Shown here: in pieces, positions 1,320 through 39,330 of the stretch | Layout of the letters: each line of letters starts with the position of its first letter | How positions within the stretch are numbered: position 1 is the stretch's first letter | Origin: a virus | Lineage: Duplodnaviria; Heunggongvirae; Uroviricota; Caudoviricetes | Virus record (IMG/VR): IMGVR_UViG_2541047698_000019 | Strand: one strand, 5' to 3' | DNA: 40,640 nucleotides | The notes under the pieces: model-generated | The model's database searches: none | The model's input: the letters and a program-made list of their open reading frames with translations, nothing else | What the model was told of the DNA's origin: nothing | Position numbers and translations under genes: made by a program

Positions 1320-1423
1320 ATGCACGGTAATTCTGAAATGCAAAAAATCAACCAAACCAGCGCAATGCCTGAAAAAACTGACGTTCACTGGAGTGGTCGG
1401 TTTAGCGTTGCACCAATGCTCGA
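1320..1423 (+). pseudogene. dusA: displaced original 5' end of dusA (about 35 codons) at the distal prophage junction
   Basis: ATG at 1320 opens a frame reading MHGNSEMQKINQTSAMPEKTDVHWSGRFSVAPMLD, about 80 percent identical in DNA to the start of the intact dusA at 39227, then runs into unrelated sequence and stops at 1440-1442. From memory this matches the E. coli K-12 DusA N-terminus. Confidence 0.7.
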
Positions 1424-1567
1424 TAGGATGTACCGTTTTTGAAAAACAAGTAGTTATACACTCTGTGGGAGCCTATTGGGAACCCGGCGTTTTCATTTCA
1501 AGGTGTAATCCATACGCGGCTTAAGAATGAGATATAATGCGATTTTTAGTGTTCCGCTTGAGAGGCC

Positions 1568-2104
1568 ATGATGCTTACCCTGGACGAGATAGGTCAATCA
1601 GTACGTAACAATATCCAGTTGATTATTGATCATGTCGGCTTACCTCTTGCTGTTGGTCCGCTCAGTGATGATGATTACAAGATTCTGTGTGGTGGCTATG
1701 GTGAGCTTGAATGGGACTATGCGTTAAGTACCTATGGCAACTCCAGAGAAAAGTATGAGTTCTGCATAAAACTTGTTCAGCAAGGTCGGGTTCAGGGAAT
1801 ACCATCAGGAGCAGCAATTTGTGTTTATGGGGTTGAAGAAAACATCTTTCGTATCCATATGATCGAAAGGTTTTCTAGAGAAGATGAATCTCACCCATTG
1901 AAAGGGCGCATGGTTTTACTCACTCTTATGAGTGCTTTTATATTTTGTAAAGCTGTTGAATGTAAAGTTGTCCACATTGTAGAGCCAGTACCAGAACTGG
2001 TGCAGTATTACGAGTCTTTTGGTTTCCGCATGGAACAGTGCGGTTATGTGATGTCGGCAGTCATTGATGAGCTGCAGGATATCTTTCTTAAATTTGCTCA
2101 GTAG
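1568..2104 (+). CDS. hypothetical cargo protein, possibly a divergent GNAT-like fold
   Basis: ORF track (178 aa), RBS gagagg upstream of ATG. C-terminal stretch LKGRMVLLTLMSAF...VQYYESFGF is reminiscent of acetyltransferase motifs A/B. Assignment tentative. Confidence 0.5.
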   Translation: MMLTLDEIGQSVRNNIQLIIDHVGLPLAVGPLSDDDYKILCGGYGELEWDYALSTYGNSREKYEFCIKLVQQGRVQGIPSGAAICVYGVEENIFRIHMIERFSREDESHPLKGRMVLLTLMSAFIFCKAVECKVVHIVEPVPELVQYYESFGFRMEQCGYVMSAVIDELQDIFLKFAQ

Positions 2105-2121
2105 GTATAGACGAGAAGGGT

Positions 2122-2134
2122 CTACAAATTGTAG
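2122..2134. repeat. 13-bp perfect palindrome CTACAAATTGTAG just after the 1568-2104 stop
   Basis: Read directly from the sequence; 6-bp arms with a 1-nt centre. Confidence 0.5.
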
Positions 2135-2209
2135 GATACCCGTCCAGATTACCTTAAAGGTACATCTATGGCAGTCGTTTTGTGCTTAAACTACTAAGAA
2201 ACGATGTCA

Positions 2210-2230
2210 CCAATCGACATGATCGATTGG
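2210..2230. repeat. inverted repeat CCAATCGA-catga-TCGATTGG upstream of the small ORF
   Basis: 8-bp perfect arms, 5-nt spacer, read directly. Possible operator. Confidence 0.5.
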
Positions 2231-2300
2231 CATAAGTTAGCGAAACAAGCTAGCTTTAAAGAGAGGGTTAGAGACGCCTTTACTGTCTCGGGAGTTTTCT

Positions 2301-2474
2301 ATGAAAGATCAAAAAGCAACCAAGCCACAGGTTAAGTTCGACACAATGAAAGCATTCGCAGGTATGGGTGCTGCTGTTGAAGTTCTGATGAAGGCTGCTC
2401 CTAATGCGTTCACTCACGCTACTGTCTCTGGTAAAGAGCAGCAGGGTAAGCTTCGTCGTCGCAAAGCAGCATGA
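2301..2474 (+). CDS. small basic hypothetical protein (57 aa)
   Basis: ATG at 2301 preceded by gggag at 6-nt spacing. Translation MKDQKATKPQVKFDTMKAFAGMGAAVEVLMKAAPNAFTHATVSGKEQQGKLRRRKAA. Below the ORF-track size cutoff. Followed by a terminator. Confidence 0.4.
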   Translation: MKDQKATKPQVKFDTMKAFAGMGAAVEVLMKAAPNAFTHATVSGKEQQGKLRRRKAA

Positions 2475-2493
2475 TCATAGCTGGTGCTTTTTG

Positions 2494-2519
2494 AAAACCC
2501 GCCTTTAGGCGGGTTTTTT
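2494..2519. terminator. bidirectional rho-independent terminator
   Basis: aaaa-cccgcc-ttta-ggcggg-tttttt. Sits between the convergent 2301-2474 (+) and 2522-2830 (-) genes. Confidence 0.7.
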
Positions 2520-2521
2520 CT

Positions 2522-2830
2522 TTAGTGATGTTCTTTGCCCTTCTGTTTGCCTGTTCTGACCTGTTCCCACTCGATACGTCCTTCTTCTCGTCTTTTGTCT
2601 ATGTATTCCGCAAGATCCTGAATATTGATGCAACGTTTTGCTTTTTGTGATGTGCCGATGCGATATGTTGGAACGGGCAACTTACAAGCGTTTGCTTTTG
2701 CTTCTGCCGTGGCTGGACTCATGCCAAAGTACTTTTGGCTAACTGCTGAGAGTTCAATGTTAGGGGTATTGAATTCAGCCATCAGTAAAAACAAGGTGTT
2801 CATAATTTTCTCCATCAAAACCGGCTGCAC
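2522..2830 (-). CDS. PrtN-like / excisionase-like small DNA-binding protein
   Basis: 102-aa ORF at the distal end of the leftward early operon. Resembles the pyocin-activator PrtN family often annotated as excisionase in prophages (from memory). Confidence 0.5.
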   Translation of the reverse strand: MQPVLMEKIMNTLFLLMAEFNTPNIELSAVSQKYFGMSPATAEAKANACKLPVPTYRIGTSQKAKRCINIQDLAEYIDKRREEGRIEWEQVRTGKQKGKEHH

Positions 2831-2839
2831 CCGGGAAAA

Positions 2840-3415
2840 TCATAATTCTGTGCTGGTGGCAGGAATTAATTTCTGCCAGATAGCGGAAACATATTTTGCC
2901 TGATGACGGGCATCGGCCAGGGCGTTGTGCCGTTCGCCATCGAAAGGCATGTCCATTTTGGGGTCGAATCCGATGTAACGCCCAAGCGTAACGATCGTGC
3001 GTACATCGTGGTCATTCCAGTATGCCCACGGGCAGATTTGTCCTGCTCGCTCATAAGCTCCACGTAAAATTACGTTGTCGAAGGTGGCCCCGTTACCCCA
3101 GACTTTTAAATATTTCGTATTGGCTGCGTGCCGGTTAATGAAATGATTTAGTTCTGAGAGAGCATCGCTGATCGACAAAGTATCATCAATACAGATTGCA
3201 GCTCGTGCTTCAGTGCTTTGTTTCAACCACCACAGGATGGTATCGCCGTCAGGTGTAGCTCCTTGCCCCATAGCACTTTCCAGGCTAACAACCGTATAGA
3301 ATTCTTGTCCGATGTCTCCGGTTTCTGGAGTGAAGAACACCGCGCCAATGGAAACGATCGGTGCATCCTTATTTTTCCCCATCGTCTCAAGGTCGATCAT
3401 TAAGTTGTTCATCAC
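2840..3415 (-). CDS. 3'-5' exonuclease (DEDDh / DnaQ-like)
   Basis: 191 aa. MIDLETMG...SIGAV near the N-terminus (Exo I motif) and H-x4-D (HNALAD) near the C-terminus. Confidence 0.7.
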   Translation of the reverse strand: MMNNLMIDLETMGKNKDAPIVSIGAVFFTPETGDIGQEFYTVVSLESAMGQGATPDGDTILWWLKQSTEARAAICIDDTLSISDALSELNHFINRHAANTKYLKVWGNGATFDNVILRGAYERAGQICPWAYWNDHDVRTIVTLGRYIGFDPKMDMPFDGERHNALADARHQAKYVSAIWQKLIPATSTEL

Positions 3416-4035
3416 TTCACCTCCTGCGGCGGTTCCGGTAGCGGCATCCAGTGAGTTGCTTGCTCAATACCATTACCCGGCTTAATCGTTGCATCTCCGC
3501 GCCGAAAGGTGCTTCCGGTATAGCGTGCGGAGCATATTAGCGGTTCAACCAGAGGGCTATCGAAATTCACCGAAATAAGCACGTTCTGGCCCTTTTCAGG
3601 CATTCGATCACTACAGCTTATCCAACCATCCGGAGTTACCGGAGAGTTGCCCGACAGCTCGTTCAACTTGTAAGTCTGGCTTACAGGTTCGGCACCATTA
3701 AGCATGGCGGCGCGGCAGGCGTTCCAGCCTTCATCAAAGCCGACTATGCCATTATTTAAAGACGGACGAGCATCTGGCACCACCGGCACTGGCTTGGCTA
3801 TATATAGCGGCTGAACATACCAGCCCTTTGATAACCAACTGTCAGCAATGTTTTTACTCCTCGTTATTGCCGGAATACCTAAGCCATTTTCTGAATGCAG
3901 CCATGCCACCGGCTCCTCTTCTAGCGATGCCAGAGCAATTTCATAAGCACGGCGCTCAATATCGTCTCGAACCTCTAGGCTGCTGATTCGTTCTTTGATT
4001 TCTTTAATCAGTTCTTTATTGGTAAATGTGGTCAT
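3412..4035 (-). CDS. DUF551-domain phage protein
   Basis: 207 aa. C-terminal W...HWMPLPEPP signature typical of DUF551. Start overlaps the upstream stop. Confidence 0.55.
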   Translation of the reverse strand: MTTFTNKELIKEIKERISSLEVRDDIERRAYEIALASLEEEPVAWLHSENGLGIPAITRSKNIADSWLSKGWYVQPLYIAKPVPVVPDARPSLNNGIVGFDEGWNACRAAMLNGAEPVSQTYKLNELSGNSPVTPDGWISCSDRMPEKGQNVLISVNFDSPLVEPLICSARYTGSTFRRGDATIKPGNGIEQATHWMPLPEPPQEVK

Positions 4036-4397
4036 TATGCTCCAGCCTCCGGCGCTTTTGGCATTACTGCCCAGTGAGTGATATTGAAGTTTTCAAGGTC
4101 CCCGACCTGAAATGTCCACTGCCATTCTCCGGTTTCTTTTTGTCCCCAGGTGTACCAGAGAGAACGCCAGCCAATCAGCCAGCCTTCTCCGTTAGCATCA
4201 AATAACAGAACACTTTCATTTGCTGGTGGCAGTTCAGCTGACACTGGTATTATTTTGTTTTCCAGTGCCGCACATTTAGCTTCAAGCGCGTCGAATTTAC
4301 GTACCAGGTACTCAGCATTTGTTTCGTTCACTTTCAGATCTCGCGGTACACATTTCCCGCGAAGAAACCCTTCCATTTCGAAAACATTCATGCGCAT
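4035..4397 (-). CDS. DUF551-like phage protein (paralogue of 3412-4035)
   Basis: 120 aa. C-terminal ...ITHWAVMPKAPE resembles the DUF551 signature. Confidence 0.45.
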   Translation of the reverse strand: MRMNVFEMEGFLRGKCVPRDLKVNETNAEYLVRKFDALEAKCAALENKIIPVSAELPPANESVLLFDANGEGWLIGWRSLWYTWGQKETGEWQWTFQVGDLENFNITHWAVMPKAPEAGA

Positions 4398-4951
4398 TTG
4401 CGTAACTCCGATAACTCGTTAAAACGTTCCATAAACATCCCGTAGGCATGGCTAGGTGCCAGTGGAATCACGTTGAACATCTCTGTTGCCGGGATGCCTT
4501 CCAGTACAGGCCAGAAAGAGCCATCATCAAGCCCGAGATCGCGGCGTTCGGTTGCCAGCATGATAAGATCGGCATATTTCACGGGCGTACTCATAACTGG
4601 GGGTAACCCGTATTTCTCACGGATTACGGCGTCAATTTTTTCTTCCATCCGTTTATAGTCAGGAAGAAGGCGTTTCAGTGGAGCGGGAATATCCTGGCAA
4701 TACGCTTCTGTTGCATCATGCATTAACGCTTCAAAAGCAAATTCCTGCGGCACCAGCTGGCTGCAAAGCACCGCATGTTGGGCGACACTGTAGAAGTGAG
4801 AAAGATGACCGGCAAAGCGGCAGATATTTGAAAGGGAAACCGCGATATCGTTAATCACGATGTCGTCTTTATTTATCTTGTCATAATAAAAATGCTTCCC
4901 GGAAAAAGTTTTAATAAATGACATTTTGTTCTCCGCGTATATGCGCTGCAC
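4388..4951 (-). CDS. HD-domain phosphohydrolase (YfdR-like 5'-deoxynucleotidase)
   Basis: 187 aa with H...HD metal-binding pattern (HLSHFYSVAQHAV ... MHDATEAY). Size and position match the prophage YfdR family. Confidence 0.65.
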   Translation of the reverse strand: MQRIYAENKMSFIKTFSGKHFYYDKINKDDIVINDIAVSLSNICRFAGHLSHFYSVAQHAVLCSQLVPQEFAFEALMHDATEAYCQDIPAPLKRLLPDYKRMEEKIDAVIREKYGLPPVMSTPVKYADLIMLATERRDLGLDDGSFWPVLEGIPATEMFNVIPLAPSHAYGMFMERFNELSELRKCA

Positions 4952-5051
4952 CGCGCTGAGTTTGGGTAAAAGGAAGCCCTCACCATCCGGTGATTATTGA
5001 GTTAATTACGTTTCCATAAATGCCCCCGCAGGGGCATTTGCAGTAATGAAA

Positions 5052-5876
5052 TCAGGCGGTGAAAGTACCAATAAAGGTTTCTACTTTGCTGTCTTTGAAT
5101 TTCTCAACAAGCAGATCACGAAATTCGTTAGCCATATCTTCCTGCACCGCTTCCAGCTGAATAATGCGCAGAACCAGTACAGGACGATCGCCAGTGATAA
5201 TGCTGAGGCGTAATTTAAACGGACGTTCTTTCAGACCTTCAAACGGAACGCATTTAAATTCAAATGCCACTGGCATAATGTCTTTGGTCTTCGCTTCGAC
5301 AGATTCCATCAGGGAGCGTTTGCCGCTGAAGTCATTATCTTCAAAATCAGCGGTCTGGTTTGCTTCAATCGTGATTTTACGGACTGCCGCAGCCGCTTTT
5401 GTTGCCTGAATAGCGTCACCATTAGCATCAAAGCCCACAAGGTAGTCGGCCCAGTCTTCAATCCATTCTGCCAGTGACTTCTGGGAGTTACGCTCGCCGT
5501 TAACAGACAACAGGGCAGAGAACGGTGCTGTCTTTTTCAGTTTGAGAGTGGCGGTGTTATCTGCGTGACCTGGTTCATCAATAGTACCCAGGTTAAGTAC
5601 ACTGACGGCACGCATATTATCAGCATCGATAAAGCAGCGGGTGCCTTCATCTGCAAGATCTTTAGAATAACGGGTAAAGTCATCGATGCTGGCAGTGGAA
5701 AGCGCACCACGGAAACGGAAGCGATTTAAATTAAATTTTTCCAGATCATGAATGCGGAAATTCTCAGGCAATGCCACAGCATCGGCACCAATCTTACTGA
5801 TAATTTCATTAACACCCTGAGCAGAAATAAGGGCATGGATTTGATTAATTGCGGTTGCGTCTAAGTTCTGAGACAT
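5052..5876 (-). CDS. YfdQ-like protein (DUF2303)
   Basis: 274 aa, the same length as E. coli CPS-53 YfdQ. Gene order 120/274/187/120 aa parallels yfdP-Q-R-S (from memory). Confidence 0.55.
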
Positions 5877-5941
5877 AATAAGTCCTCACTATATAAAGAT
5901 ATTCAGTGATGAGATAAATAATCAGTTAATTAAGAACGATA

Positions 5942-6304
5942 TTAATGACCTGCTGCGCGTAGTTTTCCGTCAGGTTCACCGGCAAGAGTCAGTAATTGTC
6001 CCTGGTCTTCCTGCAGAATAGTCAGGCGACCACCGCGATTGACATACATCGGCGTTTCGGTGGTGTCTTCTTCGGAAATTTTCCCGCGGTTAGTCGGGCG
6101 AACATATGAGAGTTTGTGTTTGATTTTCACACGGTTCTCATCAAATGGTTCGATTTCCAGGTTGAGTGAGACCTTACCTTTGGTTTTCGTGTTCATCACA
6201 CCGGAAGCGACTTCACTGAGAACAGCGCCGATTTTGGTTTCAAATACGCCGCCGTCCAGCTCCCCGATAAATGCCTGCACATCAGTACTGCGTTCGCTAG
6301 CCAT
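5942..6304 (-). CDS. hypothetical phage protein (YfdP-like by position)
   Basis: ORF track 5942-6532, trimmed to the ATG at 6304 (MASERSTDVQ...) which has a GAGGAG RBS 8 nt upstream; 120 aa. Confidence 0.5.
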   Translation of the reverse strand: MASERSTDVQAFIGELDGGVFETKIGAVLSEVASGVMNTKTKGKVSLNLEIEPFDENRVKIKHKLSYVRPTNRGKISEEDTTETPMYVNRGGRLTILQEDQGQLLTLAGEPDGKLRAAGH

Positions 6305-6352
6305 TTTGCTGCTCCTCATCATATCGACCCTGCAAGGTCGGTTAGTTTCTCC

Positions 6353-6441
6353 ACAAAACAGAGAAGAACACCTGCGGTGGCAGCCGCCCGGATGGATTGG
6401 GTTATGAGCCCGTCGTCCGGTGATGCTCTTCTCTGTTTTGT
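6353..6441. repeat. long inverted repeat: 15-bp perfect arms ACAAAACAGAGAAGA / TCTTCTCTGTTTTGT separated by about 59 nt
   Basis: Read directly. Lies in the intergenic region between the minus-strand early genes and the plus-strand moron. Confidence 0.5.
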
Positions 6442-6583
6442 AAAAAGAGCGGTACCAGCCGGAAGCAAGGGTACAAACTGGTACCGCCAGGACTACACAC
6501 AGCAATGAAACTATTGCCTGTCTTTTCACCACTTCAGGCTCGGTGGTATGCTGGAGTTCTCACACAGCCAGCAAGGAAACCTA

Positions 6584-6925
6584 ATGAACCAGTTTTATGT
6601 TCATGTTCGTCTGTTTGAAGCAACAGCCGAACAGACCAAAAAATTTGAAGAATTAATGCTTAACTTTCTGTACCAGAAAACAATCAAAGAGTCTGACGAT
6701 AGCTGCTGCAGACTGATTCCAGAGGGATATATCCTCAAAAGCACAATGAACTGCCAACAAATCCTTGATCAAACTTTTTCCATTGCTAACAGTGCTGGTG
6801 TTGACGCAAATATATTTGTCTGCAAATTTGAACAAAGCGTATGCTTACTTCCGTCTGCTTCCTTAGTTGGCAACGATTTTGTTCATCACGATCTTACGCC
6901 TAAGCCCATCAAGCTCGATTCTTAA
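6584..6925 (+). CDS. hypothetical AT-rich moron protein, antisense to the early-left operon
   Basis: ORF track 6548-6925; preferred start is the ATG 36 nt in (MNQFYVH...) with AAGGAA RBS. Candidate promoter TTCACC-N16-TATGCT upstream. About 40 percent GC. The 3' end overlaps 6863-7171 (-) by 63 bp. Confidence 0.35.
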   Translation: MNQFYVHVRLFEATAEQTKKFEELMLNFLYQKTIKESDDSCCRLIPEGYILKSTMNCQQILDQTFSIANSAGVDANIFVCKFEQSVCLLPSASLVGNDFVHHDLTPKPIKLDS

Positions 6926-7171
6926 TGCCTTAACCATTGTGTCGTGATAAACACGGCTCACCCTCTCTCCATTGCATGGCAGTGGGGTGATCGTGTTAGC
7001 CATGAAATTCATGAACTTGGTTCGATCAGGGTCTTGCGCCTCGCAAGTCTTTAATGCCTGTTTTGCTAACAAAATACGGGCCTCAGTGCCTGCATTTGGC
7101 TCTATCTGCTGCAAACGTTTAGCGTCTTCCAGCAACAATGCGATCACATGCTTCAAATCCTGCTCATTCAT
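6863..7171 (-). CDS. hypothetical protein, first gene of the leftward early operon
   Basis: 102 aa with GGAGAG RBS upstream of the start. Located immediately left of the OL-like operator cluster. Confidence 0.5.
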   Translation of the reverse strand: MNEQDLKHVIALLLEDAKRLQQIEPNAGTEARILLAKQALKTCEAQDPDRTKFMNFMANTITPLPCNGERVSRVYHDTMVKALRIELDGLRRKIVMNKIVAN

Positions 7172-7260
7172 CTATTCTCTCCACTGAAATCATCCGCTAA
7201 CGAATCATCCTGGACTTCATATGCCCCAGGCGGCTACTTCGTGGGCGTCCTGCCTGTTCG

Positions 7261-7320
7261 TTACTGCAACATCTTTAAGTTGTAATCTAGTTGTTGTTTT
7301 GGTTGTTGTCAACAACTTTA
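7261..7320. promoter_or_regulatory. OL/PL-like operator-promoter region with repeated GTTGTTG / CAACAACTTTA motifs
   Basis: 15-bp perfect palindrome GTTGTTGTCAACAAC (7302-7316) plus additional AGTTGT/GTTGTTG repeats. The same motif family recurs at 8221-8310. Confidence 0.5.
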
Positions 7321-7506
7321 TGTGGTTTTGACGGATGTGAAATGAGGGCAAGGGTTATCAAAAAAGGAGGTTGTATGGACGATGCGCTTTTAATTACACA
7401 AGGGACACTTTCCTTCCGTGATTGGAAACTCTCAAATCACGGGAGGAAGATTGAAAAGGCGGGTAATAATGGTAACTAAATTTCTGAAGGAAGGTTTTTT
7501 GATGCA

Positions 7507-8193
7507 TTACCAAGTGCGCGATGACCAGAATACTCTACCTATAACGTGAATTCTGGAACGCCTATCTTCGAAGGTGAGTATTTCATCTGGATACTCATCT
7601 TTATTGAAACTTCTTAGAATCAGACCACCGTCAGGTAAATTGATCAATATTTTAACTCTAAGTAATACGCCATCACGTATGGCATAAAGATCCCCATCAC
7701 GAATAGGAACCGTTTGGGAAACATCAACAGCAACAAAATCTCCATTGTTAAGTACAGGTAGTAAACTATTGCCCCAAATTTTTACGATCTTTGCATTGGA
7801 GACACATACACCAGCTTTTCTTAAATCAATCCTTCTTAGCGGGAACCAGTCTACAGTTGATTCAACTATTTCAGCCAAACATCCATTACCCGCTGATAAC
7901 TCGACATCTAGGACTGGAATGTTTGCAAAAATGTCAGGATCTAATGCTGTACTTTCAGCCTCCTTTACAACAAGGTCTGGGAAAGACGCGTTATCCTCAA
8001 TGCCCAATTGCAACCACTTTTGAGAAACCCCTAACACTTTAGCAATCTCTTTAATTTTCCGAGGCTGTTGAGTTTCTCCATTCTCGATTTTCGCTACGGA
8101 TTGTTGTGAAAGCCCAATTTTTTCAGCTAGTTGCGCCTGACTCATTCCTGCTTTTTCTCTTTCGCTTTTTAGTCTTTCTGCCAATGTTTTCAC
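7507..8193 (-). CDS. CI-like phage repressor (XRE-family HTH plus S24 LexA-like peptidase domain)
   Basis: 228 aa. N-terminal HTH (MSQAQLAEKIGLSQQSVAKIENG). C-terminal autocleavage-domain features (AG cleavage-site motif, S...K spacing). Non-ATG (GTG) start with GAGGGGGA RBS. Confidence 0.85.
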   Translation of the reverse strand: MKTLAERLKSEREKAGMSQAQLAEKIGLSQQSVAKIENGETQQPRKIKEIAKVLGVSQKWLQLGIEDNASFPDLVVKEAESTALDPDIFANIPVLDVELSAGNGCLAEIVESTVDWFPLRRIDLRKAGVCVSNAKIVKIWGNSLLPVLNNGDFVAVDVSQTVPIRDGDLYAIRDGVLLRVKILINLPDGGLILRSFNKDEYPDEILTFEDRRSRIHVIGRVFWSSRTW

Positions 8194-8220
8194 AACATAT
8201 CCCCCTCGTTTTTATTGAGG

Positions 8221-8310: not shown

Positions 8311-8330
8311 CTTACAGATAGGAGAAAGCT

Positions 8331-8579
8331 ATGACACCTGAGCAATTAGCCTTATCAGAGGCAATCGCTCTGGCTGGTGGTCAATCAGAATTGGCTCGGA
8401 AGCTCACAGCCAGCAGTGGTCGTTTAGTAAAGCAACAACATGTCTGGAACTGGTTGAACAGAGAAAAGCGTCCCCCTGCAAAGCTCTCGATATTTATTGA
8501 AATGACCACTGGCGTATCAAAAGAAAAATTACGTCCAGATATTTTTCAAAAGATTAAAGACTTATCAGATGGAAAGTAA
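8331..8579 (+). CDS. Cro-like / YdaS-like HTH regulator
   Basis: 82 aa, divergent from the repressor, AGGAG RBS. Small HTH protein. Confidence 0.65.
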   Translation: MTPEQLALSEAIALAGGQSELARKLTASSGRLVKQQHVWNWLNREKRPPAKLSIFIEMTTGVSKEKLRPDIFQKIKDLSDGK

Positions 8580-9159
8580 CCACAGTTTTAAGGAGATAGC
8601 CGTGGGTAAGCATCACTGGAAAGTAGAAAAACAGCCTGAGTGGTACGTGAAAGCTGTCAGAAAAACTATCGCAACATTGCCGGGTGGTTACGCTGAAGCA
8701 GCTGACTGGCTGGATGTAACAGAGAACGCATTATTTAACCGCCTTCGTGCTGATGGCGATCAGATTTTCCCGCTGGGATGGGCAATGATTTTGCAACGTG
8801 CTGGTGGAACTCACTTCATTGCTGACGCTGTGGCGCAGTCTGCAAATGGCGTCTTTGTGTCTCTTCCTGACGTCGAGGATGTGGACAACGCCGATATAAA
8901 CCAGCGCCTGCTGGAAGTCATCGAACAGATCGGGAGTTACTCAAAGCAGATTCGTTCGGCAATCGAAGATGGGGTAGTGGAGCCACACGAGCAGACAGCA
9001 ATTAATGATGAGTTGTATCTGTCAATTTCGAAGCTCCAGGAGCATGCAGCACTGGTCTACAAAATCTTTTGCGCTCCAGAAAAGAGTAACGCCCGCGAGT
9101 GTGCAGCTCCGGGCGTCGTGGCGTCGATTGCTTCTGGTTGTGGAGAAACTAACGCATGA
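8569..9159 (+). CDS. CII-like regulatory protein (YdaT family)
   Basis: 196 aa, directly downstream of the cro-like gene in the classic Cro/CII position. Family assignment from memory. Confidence 0.5.
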
Positions 9160-9547
9160 ACAGTTTAACAACACACTACCGTCGCTCGCAACTGATTGCG
9201 CTTCCTGTACCGGGTGGAAAAGCGAAGGTGGAGTATTGCTATGCAGTGAATGTACCAGGTGACAGGGAAATTGTAACCCACAGATTTGCAGAGTGGGCTG
9301 TGGGTGATTTCAACCGGCAGAAGGAGACAGTCCTTTGCAACAAGTTAACCGCTGGTTCAAAGATCACTACGGAGTGCCCGTCAGAGTCATTCGTTGGGAA
9401 CCGGAAACACAACGGGTTATCTACCTCCGCGAAGGCTATGAGCATGAATGCTTCAGTCCGCTCGAACAGTTTCGTCGTAAATTCAGGGAAATAGAGGTCG
9501 GTCATGAGCCTGTTAATGACATCCCAGCCCATTGTGATAAATCGTGA
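9156..9547 (+). pseudogene. hypothetical gene apparently split by a frameshift (ORFs 9156-9494 and 9335-9547)
   Basis: First ORF starts with an ATGA overlap on the CII-like stop. Its second half is low-complexity, while the overlapping frame ([27 protein letters not shown]...) has no internal ATG and ends by overlapping the replication-gene start. Confidence 0.3.
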
Positions 9548-10496
9548 TCTTGCATGCCGTATTGGTCTGAATGAGGCAATTGTGTTGCAGCAGCTTCATT
9601 ACTGGCTGAATGAAACGAATTCAGGCACTGAGCATGGCGGAATTCGCTGGGTTTATAACACGACAGAACAGTGGCTGGAGCAGTTTCCGTTCTGGTCAGA
9701 GTCCACTCTGAAACGCACATTTGCAAGCCTGAAATCACTTGGGGTTTTGCGTCGCGAGCAACTCAATAAATCGAAGCGTGACATGACCAACTTCTACACG
9801 ATCAACTATGAAAGTGAGCTTTTAGAAGAGGTCAAAGTGAACGAATCCATCAGGTCAAAATGCACTTCTCCATTGGGTCAAAGTGACCTGATGGATGGGC
9901 GCAAAATGACACGATCCATAGGTTCAAAACGACACGCTGTCATCGGGTCAAAATGGCCCAATGATCTTACAGAGAATACAACAGAGATTACTACAGAGAA
10001 TAAAACATCTTCTCGTCCGGACGCTTCGCAACCGGACACGCAAACGGCCGAACAGGAGTTTTTAACTCGCCATCCTGATGCGGTTGTATTCAGTCCTAAA
10101 AAGCGCCAGTGGGGAACGCAGGATGATTTGACCTGTGCACAGTGGCTCTGGAAAAAAATCATCGCCCTGTACGAGCAGGCCGCCGAATGTGACGGCGAAG
10201 TGGTTCGTCCCAAAGAACCGAACTGGACAGCCTGGGCAAACGAAATTCGCCTGATGTGTGTACAGGATGGGCGTACTCACAAACAAATCTGCGAGATGTA
10301 CAGCCGCGTCAGCCGCGATCCGTTCTGGTGCCGTAACGTGCTCAGCCCGTCGAAGCTGCGGGAAAAATGGGATGAGCTTTCCCTGCGCTTATCGCCGTCC
10401 GTCAGCACGTACACCGAAAAACGCGAAGACCCGTACTTCAAAGCCAGTTACGACAACGTGGACTACAGCCAGATCCCGGCAGGATTCAGGGGGTGA
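9504..10496 (+). CDS. phage replication initiation / replisome-organiser protein (N-terminal wHTH, DnaT-like C-terminal region)
   Basis: 330 aa, GAGGT RBS. Position and domain architecture are typical of lambdoid O-like / primosomal proteins. Confidence 0.6.
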   Translation: MSLLMTSQPIVINRDLACRIGLNEAIVLQQLHYWLNETNSGTEHGGIRWVYNTTEQWLEQFPFWSESTLKRTFASLKSLGVLRREQLNKSKRDMTNFYTINYESELLEEVKVNESIRSKCTSPLGQSDLMDGRKMTRSIGSKRHAVIGSKWPNDLTENTTEITTENKTSSRPDASQPDTQTAEQEFLTRHPDAVVFSPKKRQWGTQDDLTCAQWLWKKIIALYEQAAECDGEVVRPKEPNWTAWANEIRLMCVQDGRTHKQICEMYSRVSRDPFWCRNVLSPSKLREKWDELSLRLSPSVSTYTEKREDPYFKASYDNVDYSQIPAGFRG

Positions 10497-12302: not shown

Positions 12303-12321
12303 TTAAGAGGAGAAACGAAGT

Positions 12322-13131: not shown

Positions 13132-13132
13132 G

Positions 13133-29239: not shown

Positions 29240-29299
29240 TGAAAAATTAATCTGTTAATGAGTCCCACTCCGGTGGGATTTTTTATGTACGGAGTTTAT

Positions 29300-32677: not shown

Positions 32678-33722
32678 ATTTCAGCGCCCGACGCTGGCAG
32701 AAAATATCAGTATGCTCCGTAACGATTTATTCGCCAGGCTGGACGTCAGCGACACGCTCCGGCGCATGGATGAAGACGTGCGGGCAAAGGTGTATGCGGC
32801 GGCGCTGCATACGGTTTACGGTTACATCGATTATCTGGCAATGAACATGCTGCCTGACCTGTGCGATGAGTCCTGGCTGGCGCGACATGCTGCGATGAAA
32901 CGGTGTCCGCGCAAGGGGGCCACGGCTGCCAGCGGGTATATGCGCTGGGAAGGTGTCAGCGATGGCCTGAAGGTGACCGCCGGGAGTGTTATTCAGCGCG
33001 ATGACCTGGTTCAGTACATGGCAACTGCCGATGCAACCAGCTCCGGTGGTGTCCTGCGCGTGCCGATCGCATGCTCAAATGCAGGCGCGGTCGGTAACGC
33101 TGACGACGGTTCGGCATTAATCCTGGTCACGCCGGTGAATGGTCTGCCGTCTTCCGGTGTGGCTGACACCCTGACAGGCGGATTTGATACTGAAGAGCTG
33201 GAAACGTGGCGCGCCCGCGTCATTGAGCGGTATTACTGGACGCCGCAGGGCGGGGCTGACGGGGACTATGTCGTCTGGGCTAAAGAAGTGCCCGGCATTA
33301 CCCGCGCATGGACATACCGTCACTGGATGGGAACGGGAACTGTCGGTGTGATGATTGCCAGCAGTGACCTGATTAATCCCATTCCGGAAGAATCAACGGA
33401 AACGGCGGCAAGACAACATATCGGGCCACTGGCCCCGGTGGCAGGCTCTGATTTGTATGTGTTCAGGCCGGTGGCACATACGGTGGATTTTCATATCCGC
33501 GTGACGCCGGACACACCGGAAATACGGGCTGCCATCACCGCGGAGTTGCGTTCGTTCCTGCTGCGTGATGGTTATCCGCAGGGAGAACTGAAGGTATCGC
33601 GTATCAGTGAGGCGATTTCCGGTGCGAACGGGGAATACAGCCATCAGTTGCTTGCACCGGCAGACAATATCTCCATTGCAAAAAATGAACTGGCGGTTCT
33701 GGGGACGATTTCATGGACGTGA
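32664..33722 (+). CDS. baseplate J-like protein (Mu gp47-like)
   Basis: 352 aa. Confidence 0.75.
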
Positions 33723-34297
33723 CAAACGATGATTACATCCGTCTGTTGTCGGCACTGTTGCCCCCCGGTCCGGCGTGGTCAGCCAGCGATCCGGCGATTG
33801 CCGGTGCGGCACCGTCATTAACCCGCGTTCATCAGCGTGCGGATGCCCTGATGCGGGAGCTGGATCCGCGCACCACCACCGAACTGATAAACCGCTGGGA
33901 GCGTCTGTGCGGCCTGCCGGATGAATGTATTCCGGCAGGGACACAGACCCTTCGCCAGCGTCAGCAACGACTGGATGCGAAGGTTAACCTGGCGGGCGGC
34001 ATCAATGAGGATTTTTACCTTGCACAGCTTGCTGCCCTGGGCAGACCAGACGCCACCATCACGCGATACGACAAAAGCACGTTCACCTGCTCATCGGCCT
34101 GTACTGACGCGGTGAATGCGCCGGAATGGCGGTATTACTGGCAGGTCAACATGCCAGCCGCCACCAACACCACCTGGATGACATGTGGCGATCCCTGTGA
34201 TTCCGCACTGCGTATCTGGGGCGACACCGTTGTCGAGTGTGTGCTTAACAAACTCTGCCCGTCGCATACCTACGTAATTTTTAAATATCCGGAGTAA
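33713..34297 (+). CDS. tail protein (Mu gp48-like, DUF2313)
   Basis: 194 aa. Confidence 0.65.
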
Positions 34298-34300
34298 TTC

Positions 34301-35305
34301 ATGCATCGTATAGACACGAAAACCGCGCAGAAGGATAAGTTCGGCGCGGGTAAGAACGGTTTTACCCGTGGTAACCCCCAGACCGGCACGCCTGCTACCG
34401 ATCTGGATGATGACTACTTTGACATGTTGCAGGAAGAGCTTTGTGGCGTGGTGGAGGCATCCGGTGCCAGCCTGGAGAAGGGGCGAAACGACCAGTTGCT
34501 TACCGCGCTTCGTGCGCTGCTGTTAAGCCGCAAGAATCCGTTTGGTGATATCAAATCGGATGGCACGGTGAAAACGGCTCTCGAAAACCTTGGTTTGGGA
34601 GATGGAACAGGAAGACTCATTGCAGTGTACCGGATTGACACATCCCGGCAAATTACACTGCCGAAAGATGCCAGGTTTGTTGTGGCAGATATGATTGGTG
34701 GCGGAGGCGGCGGTGGCAGTAACTCCACGACCGTACAACCCGGATATGCGTCAGCAGGGCAGGGCGGGAATTCAGGTAGCCGTGTGGTAGCAAAATTCAC
34801 AGTTGATGCCAGTCAGAAAATTAATATTACTATTGGCGCAGGTGGTGCGGGGGGCGTGACAACTCCCGCAACCGGAGCTAATGGAAGTGACGGTGGGGCT
34901 ACGATTATCGACGGTATTACAGCTACTGGTGGGCGAGGTGGAGCTAAGGGGGCAGCATTTAATGTTCTGCCAACCGGCGGGCCTACAGCGATTCAGAATG
35001 CTAATAACACCATTCCTGGAGGAGCAGAATTGATAGCACAGCATCTCGGGTATGGTGGAAGCTCTGGATTTCTGTTCTCGGATAAAAATGCGATTGGCGG
35101 GAAAGGGGCTGACTCTGAATTCGGAGTGGGCGGTGTGGCAGTCGGAATTAGCTCAGGAGTCAATGCATCGACGGGAAAAAATGCCACAGGTAATGGCTCT
35201 GGCGGAAGCGGCGCGGTCTCTATTTATGGATCAGGGTCTACCGGGGTGTCTATGTCGGGTGGAGCAGGGGCTGACGGTCTGGCGATTTTGTGGGTATACG
35301 GCTAA
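34301..35305 (+). CDS. tail fibre protein with glycine-rich C-terminal region
   Basis: 334 aa. Conserved N-terminal attachment region then Gly/Ser/Ala-rich repeats. Confidence 0.7.
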
Positions 35306-35700
35306 TGAACAGATACGCATTAATTAAAAACAATATTGTTGTTAATATCGTTGTTTGGGATGGCGCAGGAGATATGTTTGCCGATTTTAAGGCAGTTAAT
35401 ATCTCTGGTGTTGCAGTTGATATTGGATGGATCTATGACGGAAATAATTTCACAGCCCCCCCCGAACCTGAGAAAACTAAAGAACAGTTAATCCAGGAAG
35501 CAGAACTCGAAAAAGAAGGGCGCATACGTGCTGCAAATGATTTTATTAACAGCAAGCAGTGGCCCGGTAAAGCGGCTATTGGTCGTCTGAAAGGTGACGA
35601 ACTGGAGCAATATAATTTGTGGCTGGATTATCTGGACGCACTGGATGCTGTAGATACTTCAACTGCACCAGAAATAGACTGGCCTCAGCAATCAGAATAA
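35305..35700 (+). CDS. tail fibre assembly protein
   Basis: ORF 35290-35700 trimmed to the ATG of [10 protein letters not shown]. Confidence 0.6.
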   Translation: MNRYALIKNNIVVNIVVWDGAGDMFADFKAVNISGVAVDIGWIYDGNNFTAPPEPEKTKEQLIQEAELEKEGRIRAANDFINSKQWPGKAAIGRLKGDELEQYNLWLDYLDALDAVDTSTAPEIDWPQQSE

Positions 35701-35727
35701 AAATATGGGGCAGCGCCCCATATTTCT
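35701..35727. terminator. bidirectional rho-independent terminator
   Basis: aaa-atatggggc-agc-gccccatat-ttt between the convergent tail-fibre-assembly (+) and acyltransferase (-) genes. Confidence 0.7.
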
Positions 35728-35736
35728 CGTTGACTG

Positions 35737-36783
35737 TCATATTAAAGCTTTTCGTAAAAGTGTCTTGCCGATTAAAACACCTCTTCGCTCTACAAGCTTG
35801 TGCGCAAAATAACAAACTATAAATAACAATAATAATATTTGAATGTTACTATTGATGTATTTAATTCCGATTTTATTAACTACTAATAACAAAGAGTCCC
35901 AAATCCAGTTATGAAATAAGTACACAGCATAAGTCATTTCAGATAGCAAATTGCATGCTTTGGATTCAATGAATCTATCTTTAAATAACCACGAACAAAG
36001 AAAAATAACAGTTCCTGTGAATGCGTAGTTGTAGTGCCCCCAGAATGGGTTTATTTTTTCAATGAGAGATAAATGAAGATAGAACATAGTTACGATGGAT
36101 ATTAAAGCAACAATCCGATTAACTAACTTATGCTCTGTAAGGTACACTACTACACCTATAAACAAAAATGGCGTATACAAGGTGAAGTAAGCATTATGAA
36201 AATCCTTCGCTACAGGGAAAGGATTAATGGTGGATATAAATAATGATATAAAAAGTAGTAGAACTGTTAAAACGTTTCCTTTATTTATGAGTCCGACTTT
36301 TTTAACCAAACCCATAAACACATAGAACAGCATTTCTATTCTTAACGTCCATTCAACACCAGCCAATGAAAGAGGTGTGTTAAAGAAATCGCCTATAAGC
36401 AATAATCTAGGTATTATTATGCTCAGAGGTGGAATGTTTCCACCATTATAGTATTGGATCAACATTTCAGCTAAAACAGCAAAAATATAGAGTGGGTATA
36501 TTCTAAATATTCTTTTTAAATAAAATTCAAAAGTTGCTTCTTTTTGTAGTACGTGGGTGATGATGTACCCTGAAACAAGAAAGAAGATCACAACCCCCAT
36601 TGCACCACCGAAACTGGCATCTGCTAGTAATCCGTAAAAAAGCCTCAGTGTAACGTGGTTACTTGGATCGTTCGCCAACGAAGATAAATCTTTGTTGAAC
36701 TTATGACCTAACACCACAAGGGAGAACGCAATTACACGCATGTAATCTAAAAAAAGAATTCGACGATTGTTCATGATTTTCAT
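35737..36783 (-). CDS. acyltransferase family 3 membrane protein (O-antigen acetylase, Oac-like)
   Basis: 348 aa polytopic membrane protein with the family-typical N-terminal FLDYMRVIAFSLVVLGH region. Very AT-rich. Confidence 0.75.
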   Translation of the reverse strand: MKIMNNRRILFLDYMRVIAFSLVVLGHKFNKDLSSLANDPSNHVTLRLFYGLLADASFGGAMGVVIFFLVSGYIITHVLQKEATFEFYLKRIFRIYPLYIFAVLAEMLIQYYNGGNIPPLSIIIPRLLLIGDFFNTPLSLAGVEWTLRIEMLFYVFMGLVKKVGLINKGNVLTVLLLFISLFISTINPFPVAKDFHNAYFTLYTPFLFIGVVVYLTEHKLVNRIVALISIVTMFYLHLSLIEKINPFWGHYNYAFTGTVIFLCSWLFKDRFIESKACNLLSEMTYAVYLFHNWIWDSLLLVVNKIGIKYINSNIQILLLLFIVCYFAHKLVERRGVLIGKTLLRKALI

Positions 36784-36858
36784 TTAATTTATTGAGTTGT
36801 GATCATTTTATAGCAACTAACCATTGTTAGCTATGCTGTCACCTTGTAAACAAGATGG

Positions 36859-37185
36859 TTATGTGACATCACCGTCGATCCAGTCCTCCCACCACTGCAT
36901 CATTTCTCTGCGCTTATCGAGATACTGAGCATGGTTATAAATCCAACGCACAGATCCGCCGTTGGCATGCGCCAGTTGAGCTTTAATGACTTTGCGACGC
37001 AACTCAATAATCAAGAGCATGGAGTCAATCATCCAATCATCAATTGATCGAGAATTGAAGTGGTTGTTGAGACAAAACTGAGACACACAAAGCCTTGCAC
37101 TTGATTGCAAGGCTTTGGGCTCTTCTGTGGGGGCTACATGTCTGAAGAGCGTTGTGCCGTATTTGTGACATGCATATAACAACAT
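36859..37185 (-). CDS. hypothetical protein (doubtful)
   Basis: 108-aa ORF with no convincing RBS and no family recognised. May be a remnant. Confidence 0.25.
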   Translation of the reverse strand: MLLYACHKYGTTLFRHVAPTEEPKALQSSARLCVSQFCLNNHFNSRSIDDWMIDSMLLIIELRRKVIKAQLAHANGGSVRWIYNHAQYLDKRREMMQWWEDWIDGDVT

Positions 37186-37266
37186 AATGCATCAACTTTC
37201 TGTTTGTGCCATCAGCTATGGCTTAGTGAATGCAGTTAATGCTTGCTAGAATGATTGGTGCTACAG

Positions 37267-37293
37267 ATTCGTAATGCGAAGGTTGTAGGTTCG
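37267..37293 (+). other. tRNA-Thr-like fragment (anticodon-arm to T-arm segment), not a functional tRNA
   Basis: ATTCGTAATGCGAAGGTTGTAGGTTCG closely resembles the corresponding part of enterobacterial tRNA-Thr (thrW, from memory), but the flanking sequence cannot form the acceptor, anticodon or T stems. Confidence 0.4.
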
Positions 37294-37452
37294 TCCCCCT
37301 TTTCAGTACTACCTAAATCAATAAGTTACCTAACTTTCAGTTATGACAGAAAGATATATATGCCAAGTAAAGTATAGAGAAACTGTCAAAGCAATAAAGG
37401 CTGGTGCTCCGTGTGTGGCGGCTGATGTATAGACATTTATGCAGATGAAACG

Positions 37453-37478
37453 AAAAAAAGCCCGCATCTGCGGGCTTT
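37453..37478 (-). terminator. rho-independent terminator on the minus strand
   Basis: On the minus strand: aagcccgc-agat-gcgggctt followed by seven U. Lies about 250 nt downstream of the dinI-like gene. Confidence 0.65.
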
Positions 37479-37594
37479 CATGTCATTAGGGCACTGCGGC
37501 TCCTTTGCGTATCCTTTTTGTTTCCTCACAGTCTGGTCGGTGCCCTGCTGAGACCAATAACTTCCAGTTTTTGTTAGTGTTATCCTTACACCGT

Positions 37595-37608
37595 CCAATC
37601 ATGATTGG
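37595..37608. repeat. 14-bp perfect palindrome CCAATCATGATTGG
   Basis: Read directly. Shares the CCAATC/GATTGG half-sites with the inverted repeat at 2210-2230. Confidence 0.5.
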
Positions 37609-37730
37609 TGGGCTGGCGGGAGTTGAAACTGCAGGCACGTCGTATGCAAGAACATGCTGTGGCTGGCTGCTTTACTTTCGATAGTGCGAGTATTGAATGA
37701 TTTCCAGCCGTTACCGATTTTACGTGTTAA

Positions 37731-37979
37731 TTAGTGAACAAACCACTCGTCAGCAGATTCCCAGGTATCTTTCAGAGTCTCCTGAACAAAAGTTTTTACA
37801 GAATCCTTATCTGCGGTGCGTGTAACAGAAAGGCCATCGTTGCTGGTGGCTTTTACGATCACCTCTACATCATCATAACGTTTACTGATGCGTCGGGTTA
37901 ATTCTTCCTTTAACGCGTCCACAGCACCGGTTGGCATTTTAGTCATTTTTTCTTTGGCTATGCAGATTTCAATACGCAT
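37731..37979 (-). CDS. DinI-like DNA-damage-inducible protein
   Basis: 82 aa. [10 protein letters not shown]...[17 protein letters not shown] parallels E. coli DinI (from memory). AGAGGGA RBS. Confidence 0.8.
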
Positions 37980-37992
37980 AAAAGTCCCTCTA

Positions 37993-38040
37993 TACTGTGT
38001 TTGTATACAGTGTTATTTTTAACTGTATGGATAAACAGTG
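37993..38040. promoter_or_regulatory. two tandem LexA (SOS) boxes upstream of the dinI-like gene
   Basis: TACTGTGTTTGTATACAGTG and AACTGTATGGATAAACAGTG both fit CTGT-N8-ACAG. Confidence 0.65.
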
Positions 38041-39138
38041 TCAAGAGGTCTTATTTCTGCTCCTTTGGAGCTCTTCAAAACGATTATGTAAAGATTTCGG
38101 ATACAGTTCGGTATATACCTGCCATAGCACGTTTAATGAACGATGCCCTGTAACTTGGGCGACTTCCTCAATACTAAAACCAGCCTCAAATAAGCGACTT
38201 GCCCCTTCTCTACGCAAATCATGGTATCGCAGATCTTTAATACCTAATTTGCTTCTTACCCTCTGAAATCCCGCAGTAACAGAAGTGCTGTTATATGGAA
38301 AAATGAATTCCGATTTTTGGGGCTGTCGTTGGACGATATCCCAGGCTTCCCCAAGCAAGGCTACTTTCATGTGGTTGCCTTCCTTTTTGCGTGGATCTTT
38401 CCTGTCTCTTACGAGTATAGATTTTTGTTCTTGGTCGAGATCTTCCCATCGTAACCGGCATACTTCTCCGATTCGCATACAGGACCACACAGAAAATTTG
38501 AGGATATCAACGAACGGAATTTTTGAGCATTTATGAGTAGATCGTTGTTGAAGGCCTTCAATGAGCATGTCCAGTTCATCAGATGCTGGTCTACGATTAC
38601 GACGGTTTGATTTACCAATCAAACCAAGTTTAAGTAGATATGGACGAGCGCTTTTCGCTGGGTTTGATGTGTAATTAATTCCGTATACAGGTTTGGCTGC
38701 ATCCAGAACACTGCCAAGATAACTAACATCGTGGCTGACTGTTGCTGGACCTGCACCAGCGTTGTTTCTTAGCCTGCAATGTTCAATTACGTCATTTTCG
38801 GTCAGTTCGGATAGTTTGATCGCGGAGATGTCACTATCCATAAGCAGTTCCAGCACATATCTTTTAGTACGGCCTGCTTTACCTCCGGCATTTGGGTCAT
38901 TTAAATATTTGTGTAGTAAGTCACGGACTGTAAGTCCGTCAACTGCATTTGATGATGGAATGCCATATAGATCTAATTCCATCACTTTCTGTGTACCCCA
39001 TGTTTTGGCATGGGCATGTTTAGGGAATGTTTTGCTTTCCCTGTAAGTGATAACACCTTTTTCTTTGATAATCACATTACAGCGATAGCGTGGTGTGCCA
39101 TCGGATTTTAGTCGTTTCTCTATGTTATAGTACGCCAT
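38041..39138 (-). CDS. tyrosine integrase (dusA-associated integrase type)
   Basis: 365 aa. C-terminal catalytic region with R...H-x-x-R...Y pattern (HDLRR, GHRS, Y near the C-terminus). Adjacent to and divergent from dusA. Confidence 0.9.
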   Translation of the reverse strand: MAYYNIEKRLKSDGTPRYRCNVIIKEKGVITYRESKTFPKHAHAKTWGTQKVMELDLYGIPSSNAVDGLTVRDLLHKYLNDPNAGGKAGRTKRYVLELLMDSDISAIKLSELTENDVIEHCRLRNNAGAGPATVSHDVSYLGSVLDAAKPVYGINYTSNPAKSARPYLLKLGLIGKSNRRNRRPASDELDMLIEGLQQRSTHKCSKIPFVDILKFSVWSCMRIGEVCRLRWEDLDQEQKSILVRDRKDPRKKEGNHMKVALLGEAWDIVQRQPQKSEFIFPYNSTSVTAGFQRVRSKLGIKDLRYHDLRREGASRLFEAGFSIEEVAQVTGHRSLNVLWQVYTELYPKSLHNRFEELQRSRNKTS

Positions 39139-39158
39139 TACACGACCTCGTTATTTCG

Positions 39159-39193
39159 GGTTCCCATAAAATGTGGGAACCTGTGCGGGAACC
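39159..39193. repeat. inverted repeat GGTTCCCA-N7-TGGGAACC followed by a direct repeat GCGGGAACC in the int/dusA intergenic region
   Basis: Read directly. Candidate integrase arm-type site or operator within the phage-supplied dusA promoter region. Confidence 0.45.
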
Positions 39194-39226
39194 TAACGCG
39201 AGAAAAATAGCCTGAAATGTTCAAAA

Positions 39227-39330
39227 ATGCACGATAATCCTGAAACACAGAAAACTAATCAAACCAGCGTGATGCCTGAAAAAACTGGCGCTTACTGGAG
39301 TTCCCGGTTTAGCATTGCTCCTATGCTCGA
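39227..39330 (+). repeat. phage-supplied replacement 5' end of dusA (direct-repeat copy at the right junction)
   Basis: About 80 percent identical to 1320-1423. Identity ends in a shared ATGCTCGA, after which this copy continues as dusA and the left copy as phage DNA. Confidence 0.7.

Follow-up and report, generated by a model that had tools for sequence, protein, structure and literature searches.

The viral record IMGVR_UViG_2541047698_000019 (Caudoviricetes), a stretch of 40,640 nucleotides (nt) that we call the window, very probably contains a prophage inserted by site-specific recombination into the 5' end of the Escherichia coli tRNA-modification gene dusA, with a copy of that 5' end carried by the phage restoring the gene. 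A prediction made earlier from the sequence alone had proposed this arrangement, and the comparisons below set it against sequenced bacterial and phage genomes. In the mechanism that we favor, a temperate phage would integrate into the 5' end of dusA by means of a tyrosine recombinase. The phage attachment site, attP, would carry a diverged version of dusA codons 1–35, next to and divergent from the integrase gene int, and strands would be exchanged in an 8-bp core, ATGCTCGA, shared with the host. The host promoter and the first 35 codons would be left stranded at the left junction as a stub of 40 amino acids (aa), and an in-frame fusion of the phage 5' segment with the host codons from 36 on would yield a chimeric but complete DusA, whose transcript must begin within phage sequence. 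For excision, the integrase would act together with a PrtN/RdfN-type factor encoded on the other side of attP.

The Integration Site

The repeat of about 100 bp, about 38 kb apart, on which the original prediction was built is real. A repeat search returns 1317–1433 and 39224–39340 as a direct repeat of 117 nt at 80% identity with a spacing of 37,907, and pairwise alignment agrees. It is the longest direct repeat of the window, all others being far shorter. The coding part (1320–1423 and 39227–39330) is 104 nt long with 19 mismatches, or 82% identity. Fourteen codons differ between the copies, 4 synonymously and 10 non-synonymously, and the same residue is encoded in 24 of the 34 complete codons; the peptides that had been quoted for the two copies are correct. 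The features on the host side and at the junctions are as follows.

1–957, + strand: DUF2713 family gene (yjbM-like), host flank; Pfam PF10897, E = 2.6e-67
958–1319, + strand: native host intergenic region, presumed to hold the host dusA promoter; near-identical to K-12
1320–1442, + strand: dusA stub, the stranded native 5' end; 35 host codons, 5 phage codons and a stop, 40 aa
1416–1423: 8-bp common core ATGCTCGA of the left copy, encoding Met33-Leu34 and the first two bases of Asp35; crossover region
39323–39330: 8-bp common core ATGCTCGA of the right copy; host sequence from the core onward
40398–40640, + strand: pspG, host flank, the normal downstream neighbor of dusA; from K-12-type gene order and a reading of the sequence

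The left copy translates as MHGNSEMQKINQTSAMPEKTDVHWSGRFSVAPMLD (MHGNSEMQ...APMLD) and then continues into a foreign RMYRF and a stop. It had been taken for the E. coli reference version running into phage DNA, and it is indeed 100% identical to K-12-type dusA over nt 1–104, with the identity stopping abruptly at 1424. Alignment of both copies with dusA from prophage-free genomes makes the left version (1320–1423), and not the right, the native one. Its surroundings are also native. The K-12-type prophage-free locus has the order zur, the DUF2713 gene yjbM, dusA, pspG, qorA, dnaB, and the left copy lies in this normal zur-yjbM-dusA neighborhood. A native right version or a foreign neighborhood would each have refuted the original prediction, and both comparisons favor it. 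The yjbM-like gene holds the same position in the K-12-type and ETEC4069 annotations, as the normal upstream neighbor of dusA. The 250 nt before the left ATG differ from K-12 by two substitutions and, some 245 nt before that codon, by 1 nt in length, and a terminator-like hairpin of yjbM lies at 995–1024.

Deleting 37,907 bp and joining 1124–1423 to 39331–39630 rebuilds a 600-nt bacterial attachment site, attB. E. coli strain 7/2 carries this attB at 100.0% identity, and 3638 of the 5426 complete E. coli genomes that form our reference set have it without interruption. It also aligns base for base with the K-12-type locus. The reciprocal product, attP, was rebuilt as 1200 nt from 38731–39330 and 1424–2023. 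It is contiguous at 98.8–99.0% identity in the free phage mEp460, where the right copy is joined to int on one side and to window sequence from 1424 onward on the other.

The two junctions switch between host and phage at the same place. In the right junction, attR, the final phage-specific base is 39322 (T, where the host has A). In the left junction, attL, the sequence is host-type through 1423, phage-specific bases of the mEp460 attP type begin at 1424, and megablast alignments to genomes with an empty site end exactly at 1423. We aligned nine sequences: attR and attL of the window, the K-12 attB, three phage attP sites, and three other lysogens. In this alignment, attL consists of the left side of attB and the right side of attP, attR consists of the left side of attP and the right side of attB, and the switch falls at ATGCTCGA. 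The sequences thus bracket the predicted strand exchange to the shared ATGCTCGA in both junctions, which is where the crossover had been placed, at the 3' edge of the repeat. This core sits in the conserved APMLD motif, in the first strand of the DusA TIM barrel.

The Integration Module

The phage side of the junctions carries an integrase, two candidate arms and a candidate excision factor.

38041–39138, – strand: int, dusA-associated tyrosine integrase, 365 aa; Pfam PF00589 (Phage_integrase), E = 7.5e-21
39139–39226: proximal arm of attP, formed by the int–dusA' intergenic region; holds three TGGGAACC-type motifs
39159–39166 (– strand), 39174–39181 and 39186–39193: the TGGGAACC-type motifs of the proximal arm
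1424–1484: distal attP arm, 61 bp, common to otherwise different dusA phages, with two TGGGA(A/G)CC motifs
1466–1473 and 1477–1484: the TGGGA(A/G)CC motifs of the distal arm, candidate integrase arm sites
2522–2830, – strand: PrtN-domain protein, candidate recombination directionality factor (RDF) of the RdfN type; Pfam PF11112, E = 4.2e-23

The intact dusA had been predicted to lie beside the integrase gene, and int is divergent from it and lies 88 bp from the start of the right dusA copy at 39227; the insertion falls after nt 104 of dusA. The window Int is identical to mEp460 Int at 361 of 365 positions (99%), and in an alignment with XerA (5hxy) its R-H-R-H tetrad and nucleophilic Tyr (R222, H306, R309, H332 and Y342) fall on the conserved catalytic motifs. 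According to its record, the mEp460 protein resembles BcepIL02 Int and the INT_Rci domain. The dusA-associated integrase (DAI) family was defined by Farrugia et al., with Rci as its closest relative, and mEp460 is listed there among the DAI homologues (Farrugia 2015, PMC4482086). By its pairwise identity to mEp460 Int and that listing, the window Int appears to belong to the DAI family. The locus also has the attributes of DAI elements, namely flanking semi-conserved direct repeats with an identical core, here of 8 bp, and a new dusA 5' end supplied by the element. The right dusA version is found next to int in free phage genomes, and in the lysogens inspected it adjoins an integrase gene or an integrase remnant.

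The TGGGAACC motifs are putative arm-type integrase sites. The arms contain five of them in 253 nt where 0.2 are expected (Poisson P ~3e-6). The proximal arm, 39139–39226, is conserved in mEp460, SKA5, Lys8385Vzw and the O157 and O111 lysogens. On the distal side, the matches of SKA5 and Lys8385Vzw to the rebuilt attP stop 61 nt beyond the core, and other lysogens match the left junction only as far as 1484. In the Lys8385Vzw record, which was deposited as circular, two copies of the core ATGCTCGA follow each other in tandem, most likely because a prophage sequence was circularized with both of its att cores included.

The open reading frame (ORF) at 2522–2830 lies across attP from int. RdfN has been shown to be the RDF of dusA-specific elements and is encoded in the same position relative to int (PMC8409611). 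By analogy, the 2522–2830 product may be the excision factor. Its RefSeq homologue is named 'pyocin activator PrtN family protein' and starts at the ATG at 2803.

The Chimeric dusA and Its Spread in E. coli

39227–39322, + strand: phage-supplied replacement 5' end of dusA, codons 1–32; 99% identical to and contiguous in the mEp460 attP
39227–40264, + strand: chimeric intact dusA, 345 aa; phage codons 1–32, core codons 33–35, host codons 36–345

The fused protein is identical to K-12 DusA from residue 36. Its N-terminus is about 71% identical to native DusA (24/34 full codons, or 25/35 counting the shared Asp35), and the strand RFS(V/I)APMLD is conserved between the copies save for the V to I change. 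The fusion scores 560.6 bits over residues 19–344 against the NCBIfam DusA equivalog NF008774, for which the cutoff is 269, and matches Pfam Dus at E = 7.8e-105. The chimeric enzyme may be active. PGAP annotates the fusion as an intact dusA in every sampled lysogen and the left stub as a partial pseudogene. RefSeq likewise carries the equivalent of the stub as a partial pseudogene, and in ETEC4069 it is 'tRNA-dihydrouridine synthase, incomplete'.

The phage-type stretch 39139–39322 (184 nt, the intergenic region and codons 1–32) is present in 742 of the 5426 genomes, and 733 genomes match at least 80% of 38000–39900 (int and dusA). By this count, about 14% of complete E. coli genomes would produce a DusA with 32 phage-derived residues at its N-terminus. 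In strain TUM9812, the int next to dusA is cut by an IS66-family element, and in O111:H8 08-4347 it is frameshifted; the chimeric dusA is annotated as intact in both. Since int is broken and dusA is intact in these two strains, an N-terminus brought in by a phage can become fixed as an allele of the host. In some E. coli genomes, the match to the rebuilt attB is confined to query 285–600, beginning a few bases ahead of the core, and the mEp460-type 5' segment is lacking, which suggests that more divergent elements occupy the same dusA site in them.

Promoter, Excision and the Point of Exchange

Several points tell against parts of the favored mechanism. A scan of 38800–39400, which takes in the stretch between int and dusA', for consensus sigma-70 promoters gives 0 matches, and a lenient scan gives only weak candidates, TGtTATAGT at 39123–39131 and TAAAAT at 39167; as a result, a promoter for the chimera is something that we infer. 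The attR of the O157 lysogen 644-PT8 is host-type (GCGTTGCACCA) for at least 11 nt to the left of the core and phage-type further left. Finally, for present-day excision as for the activity of the chimeric enzyme, we infer function from sequence.

The promoter is the part of the original prediction that stands with qualification. That the resident DusA is a chimera with a phage N-terminus is borne out by the contiguity of that segment in free mEp460; that its promoter also comes from the phage is sound reasoning set beside an empty consensus scan. With 37.9 kb of phage sequence upstream and a divergent gene next door, any promoter of the chimera has to lie in phage DNA. Two short elements may be relevant here.

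39121–39133, + strand: candidate promoter element TATGTTATAGTAC, with the extended -10-like TGtTATAGT; on the opposite strand of int codons 2–6
1226–1238, + strand: host upstream 13-mer TATGGTATAGTAC, with the extended -10-like TGgTATAGT at 1228–1236; putative promoter element

The two 13-mers share TATG(G/T)TATAGTAC, agreeing at 12 of 13 positions, a level that 5 of 300 shuffles reach. They read TGnTATAGT and lie 94 nt (host) and 106 nt (phage) before their respective ATG codons, and the TATGTTATAGTAC candidate is conserved in all seven phage-type sequences aligned. This is suggestive only, and the shared 13-mer as a promoter element is best treated as a hypothesis. The consensus scan of the host upstream region gives one plus-strand match, at 1119–1147, which is about the shuffle level, and a second match on the minus strand, at 1597–1568, in phage DNA. 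For a different dusA element, IMEVchUSA3, an element-supplied promoter and a new 35-residue N-terminus have been shown in E. coli K-12 with a lacZ fusion, and dusA expression was significantly lower after integration of that element (PMC8409611).

The alternative that survives best, although we consider it unlikely, is that the prophage is defective and fixed, with excision lost and the phage N-terminus now a permanent host allele. Such decay is seen in other strains (the IS66 insertion in int of TUM9812 and the frameshift in O111:H8 08-4347), the prophage is a mosaic with relics of three other integration modules, and the complete-genome set contains no identical prophage, the best match having 82% coverage. 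The integration module of the window itself speaks for competence. Its integrase is complete and shares 99% identity with the one from an isolated phage, and there is no damage to the RDF candidate, the two cores or the two arms, which agree with a free-phage attP. The repressor, replication, lysis and structural ORFs are open, and most of the late region has a 97.6% identical counterpart in SKA5, a phage genome that has been deposited. From these features, we presume that the prophage may still be able to excise.

A somewhat less probable alternative, to which we give about the weight of a long shot, is that the restoration is illusory. The fusion would be a by-product of the homology that the integrase needs, dusA would be expressed poorly or not at all, and the integration would amount to a knock-down of a non-essential gene. 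Besides the empty promoter scan upstream of the chimera, there is no obvious Shine-Dalgarno sequence by eye, 10 of the 14 differing codons are non-synonymous, and the lowered dusA expression with IMEVchUSA3 points the same way. Against this, start codon and reading frame are preserved in the phage copy, as are all 35 codons, well in excess of the att site of about 21 bp that the family requires (PMC4482086), and V to I is the only change in the RFS(V/I)APMLD strand. The ORF is annotated as intact in all sampled lysogens, even those with a truncated or frameshifted integrase, and for another dusA element expression after integration has been demonstrated (PMC8409611).

The reading of an integrase-mediated exchange in the core can also be set against RecA-dependent homologous recombination somewhere within the 104-bp homeologous segment, which we regard as very improbable. 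The segment does hold identical runs of 16, 10, 9 and 8 nt; together with the 3'-edge 8-mer ATGCTCGA, these are the only identical runs of at least 8 nt between the copies. Runs of 16 nt or less at 82% identity are poor substrates for RecA, however, and both window junctions switch exactly at ATGCTCGA. The core also agrees with the Citrobacter rodentium attB string printed for phage 1720a-02, a phage related at 97.7%, for which a seven-base core inside TCCAGTCGAGCATGGGAGC was defined experimentally at the same position (PMC6328086). The 644-PT8 attR, which turns host-type upstream of the core, would suit a RecA route, and it means that either the exchange point differs between lineages or some attP variants differ. 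Possible explanations are variation of attP itself or, in some lineages, gene conversion or a later recombination event between the two homeologous repeats.

The reverse assignment, with the right copy as the native dusA start and the left as element-borne, has nothing for it beyond the symmetry of a direct repeat and is next to impossible, as the left version is contiguous with dusA in K-12-type and thousands of prophage-free genomes, and the right version is next to int in free phages and next to an integrase or its remnant in inspected lysogens; the K-12 alignment, the free-phage attP and the attB rebuilt from prophage-free genomes had already refuted it.

The Prophage Body, Cargo and Relics

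1424–39322: prophage body, 37,907 bp with one core included; structural genes of an SfV-like myovirus, regulation and replication genes of lambdoid type, integration module of mEp460 type
1568–2518, + strand: two-gene cargo cassette in the orientation of dusA, with a GNAT-fold gene, a 57-aa ORF and a terminator-like hairpin
1568–2104, + strand: GNAT-fold protein, the first gene past the left junction; AlphaFold2 pLDDT 90.7
2301–2474, + strand: 57-aa ORF, conserved at 56–58 aa; always accompanies the GNAT gene
2493–2518: terminator-like hairpin after the cassette
7507–8193, – strand: CI-like repressor
8569–9159: CII-like gene
9504–10496: O-like gene
35737–36783, – strand: Acyl_transf_3 O-acetyltransferase cargo
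36859–37185, – strand: C-terminal remnant of an IntS-type integrase, adjoining the O-acetyltransferase gene
37267–37329: tRNA-Thr-like fragment, about 82% similar by blastn to a tRNA-Thr 3' end and its integrase-bearing island junction
37455–37627: ssrA-related stretch, about 88% identity to the final ~23 nt of ssrA (tmRNA) and to ~150 nt of adjacent DNA

The phage is a mosaic. In the late region (14400–39200), SKA5 covers 79% at 97.6% identity and SfV covers 67% at 97.7%. The large structural, repressor, replication and lysis ORFs are open. The same prophage was not found among the complete E. coli genomes, the best match covering 82% at 96%.

All top PDB matches to the model of the GNAT-fold protein are GNAT acetyltransferases, including the toxins KacT, AtaT and TacT among many others, and the protein has no Pfam, NCBIfam or PADLOC match. 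A PADLOC defense-system scan of eight cargo and early ORFs also gave no match. The GNAT gene and the 57-aa ORF belong to phrog_4350 and phrog_2741, both of unknown function. We considered whether the cassette is functionally tied to the dusA site through capture of the host promoter, and rejected this as a conserved rule. The same pair of genes occupies other prophage positions in Citrobacter, Edwardsiella, Photorhabdus and Shewanella: after the Q antiterminator, before the lysis genes, or between tail genes. The cassette is a mobile moron, outside the dusA system. Read-through from the host promoter into the cassette is possible in this particular lysogen; a scan between the stub and 1568 found no terminator-like hairpin meeting its criteria.

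A more elaborate idea, which we hold to be improbable, joins these features. Besides imitating the N-terminus of DusA, the phage would hold, in int codons 2–6, a diverged version of the extended -10 element of the dusA promoter (TATGnTATAGTAC), flanked by the candidate arm sites, so that occupancy by Int could modulate dusA expression. Transcription from the stranded promoter of the host gene would continue past the 40-aa stub into the GNAT gene and 57-aa ORF (1568–2474). If so, two transcription units would be swapped reciprocally by integration, and the GNAT cassette would be a lysogen-specific conversion module driven by a host promoter.

The region between the O-acetyltransferase gene and int seems to record earlier integration modules. 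A related prophage in E. coli HCP4S3_I4 has the same tail-fiber/acyltransferase block followed by an intact intS and a tRNA-Arg gene. From this and the IntS remnant, an ancestor of the phage probably used argW and later swapped its integration module. The tRNA-Thr 3' end and island junction that 37267–37329 resembles occur in thousands of E. coli genomes, and the fragment looks like a relic of a tRNA-Thr-type att site. The ssrA-related stretch matches Nissle 1917 and many other strains, and resembles the remains of an att region of the ssrA type. Near 1.107 Mb, K-12 also holds an unannotated copy similar to 37455–37627. Neither ARAGORN nor Rfam at its gathering thresholds finds any RNA gene in the window, and an E-value scan of 37150–37400 with Rfam returns only noise. 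In a megablast comparison of 35700–38040 with phages, only the DinI part matches known phages.

Relationship to Known Systems

With the prophage boundaries fixed to the base (1424 to 39322/39330), the window would serve as a clean example of gene-restoring integration, one that matters little beyond correct annotation. Integration of this type explains why annotation pipelines list, at a distance of 38 kb from each other, an intact dusA and a pseudogene called partial tRNA-dihydrouridine synthase.

Two phages are related in their integration module. The Stx2 phage 1720a-02 (phi-stx2dact) in C. rodentium inserts about 100 bp into dusA, with its 7-base core lying within ...CCCATGCTCGACTGGA..., carries an in-frame phi-dusA' next to int, and was observed to regenerate attP (Balasubramanian 2019, PMC6328086). 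Its int-side DNA is 97.7% identical to the window, its integrase is of the same type, and its junctions were verified by experiment. It differs in being a lambdoid Stx-converting siphovirus of another host species; the phage of the window lacks stx, and its head and tail genes are of the SfV-like kind. Similarly, mEp460 is lambdoid, and the carrier in the window is an SfV-like myovirus.

The late region of the window is instead 96–98% identical to the SfV-like serotype-converting myoviruses of Shigella and E. coli (SfV, SfII, SfI, SfIV and also Escherichia phage SKA5), which, like the window, have an acyltransferase cargo of the O-antigen type adjoining the att end. For phages of the SfV type, the integration sites are tRNA genes (thrW). 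In the window, however, only an IntS remnant and a tRNA-Thr-like fragment recall the SfV/IntS type of integration at a tRNA gene, and the element lies in dusA. The active integration module is of the dusA type, as it is in SKA5.

The supply of a gene end is found in other elements as well. IMEVchUSA3 and related Vibrio dusA elements bring a new promoter and a 35-residue N-terminus, with a PrtN-domain RDF across attP (Durand 2021, PMC8409611). IMEVchUSA3 is a mobilizable island under IncC AcaCD control and not a phage; its N-terminus is 61% identical to the native one, against about 71% in the window, and its promoter sequence is unrelated. The SXT integrative and conjugative element in prfC and the phages that target tRNA or tmRNA genes (P22, P4, SfV) also carry the end of the gene that they disrupt and regenerate a functional gene. 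These have other target genes and other integrase families, and the tRNA phages restore a 3' end and need no promoter.

The DAI elements are the general case. Farrugia et al. described dusA as their target site, a replacement 5' end that includes the first TIM-barrel strand, semi-conserved flanking direct repeats, and an Rci-related recombinase (Farrugia 2015, PMC4482086). The prophage of the window has the same type of integrase, the same single site at the 5' end of dusA, and a 5' end supplied by the element. Nothing essential differs, the copy in the E. coli phages being a long one (104 nt, 82% identical to the host). The whole mechanism, including the new promoter and N-terminus, has already been published (Farrugia 2015; Balasubramanian 2019; Durand 2021), and a 2026 DusA paper states the arrangement as established background (PMC13136901).

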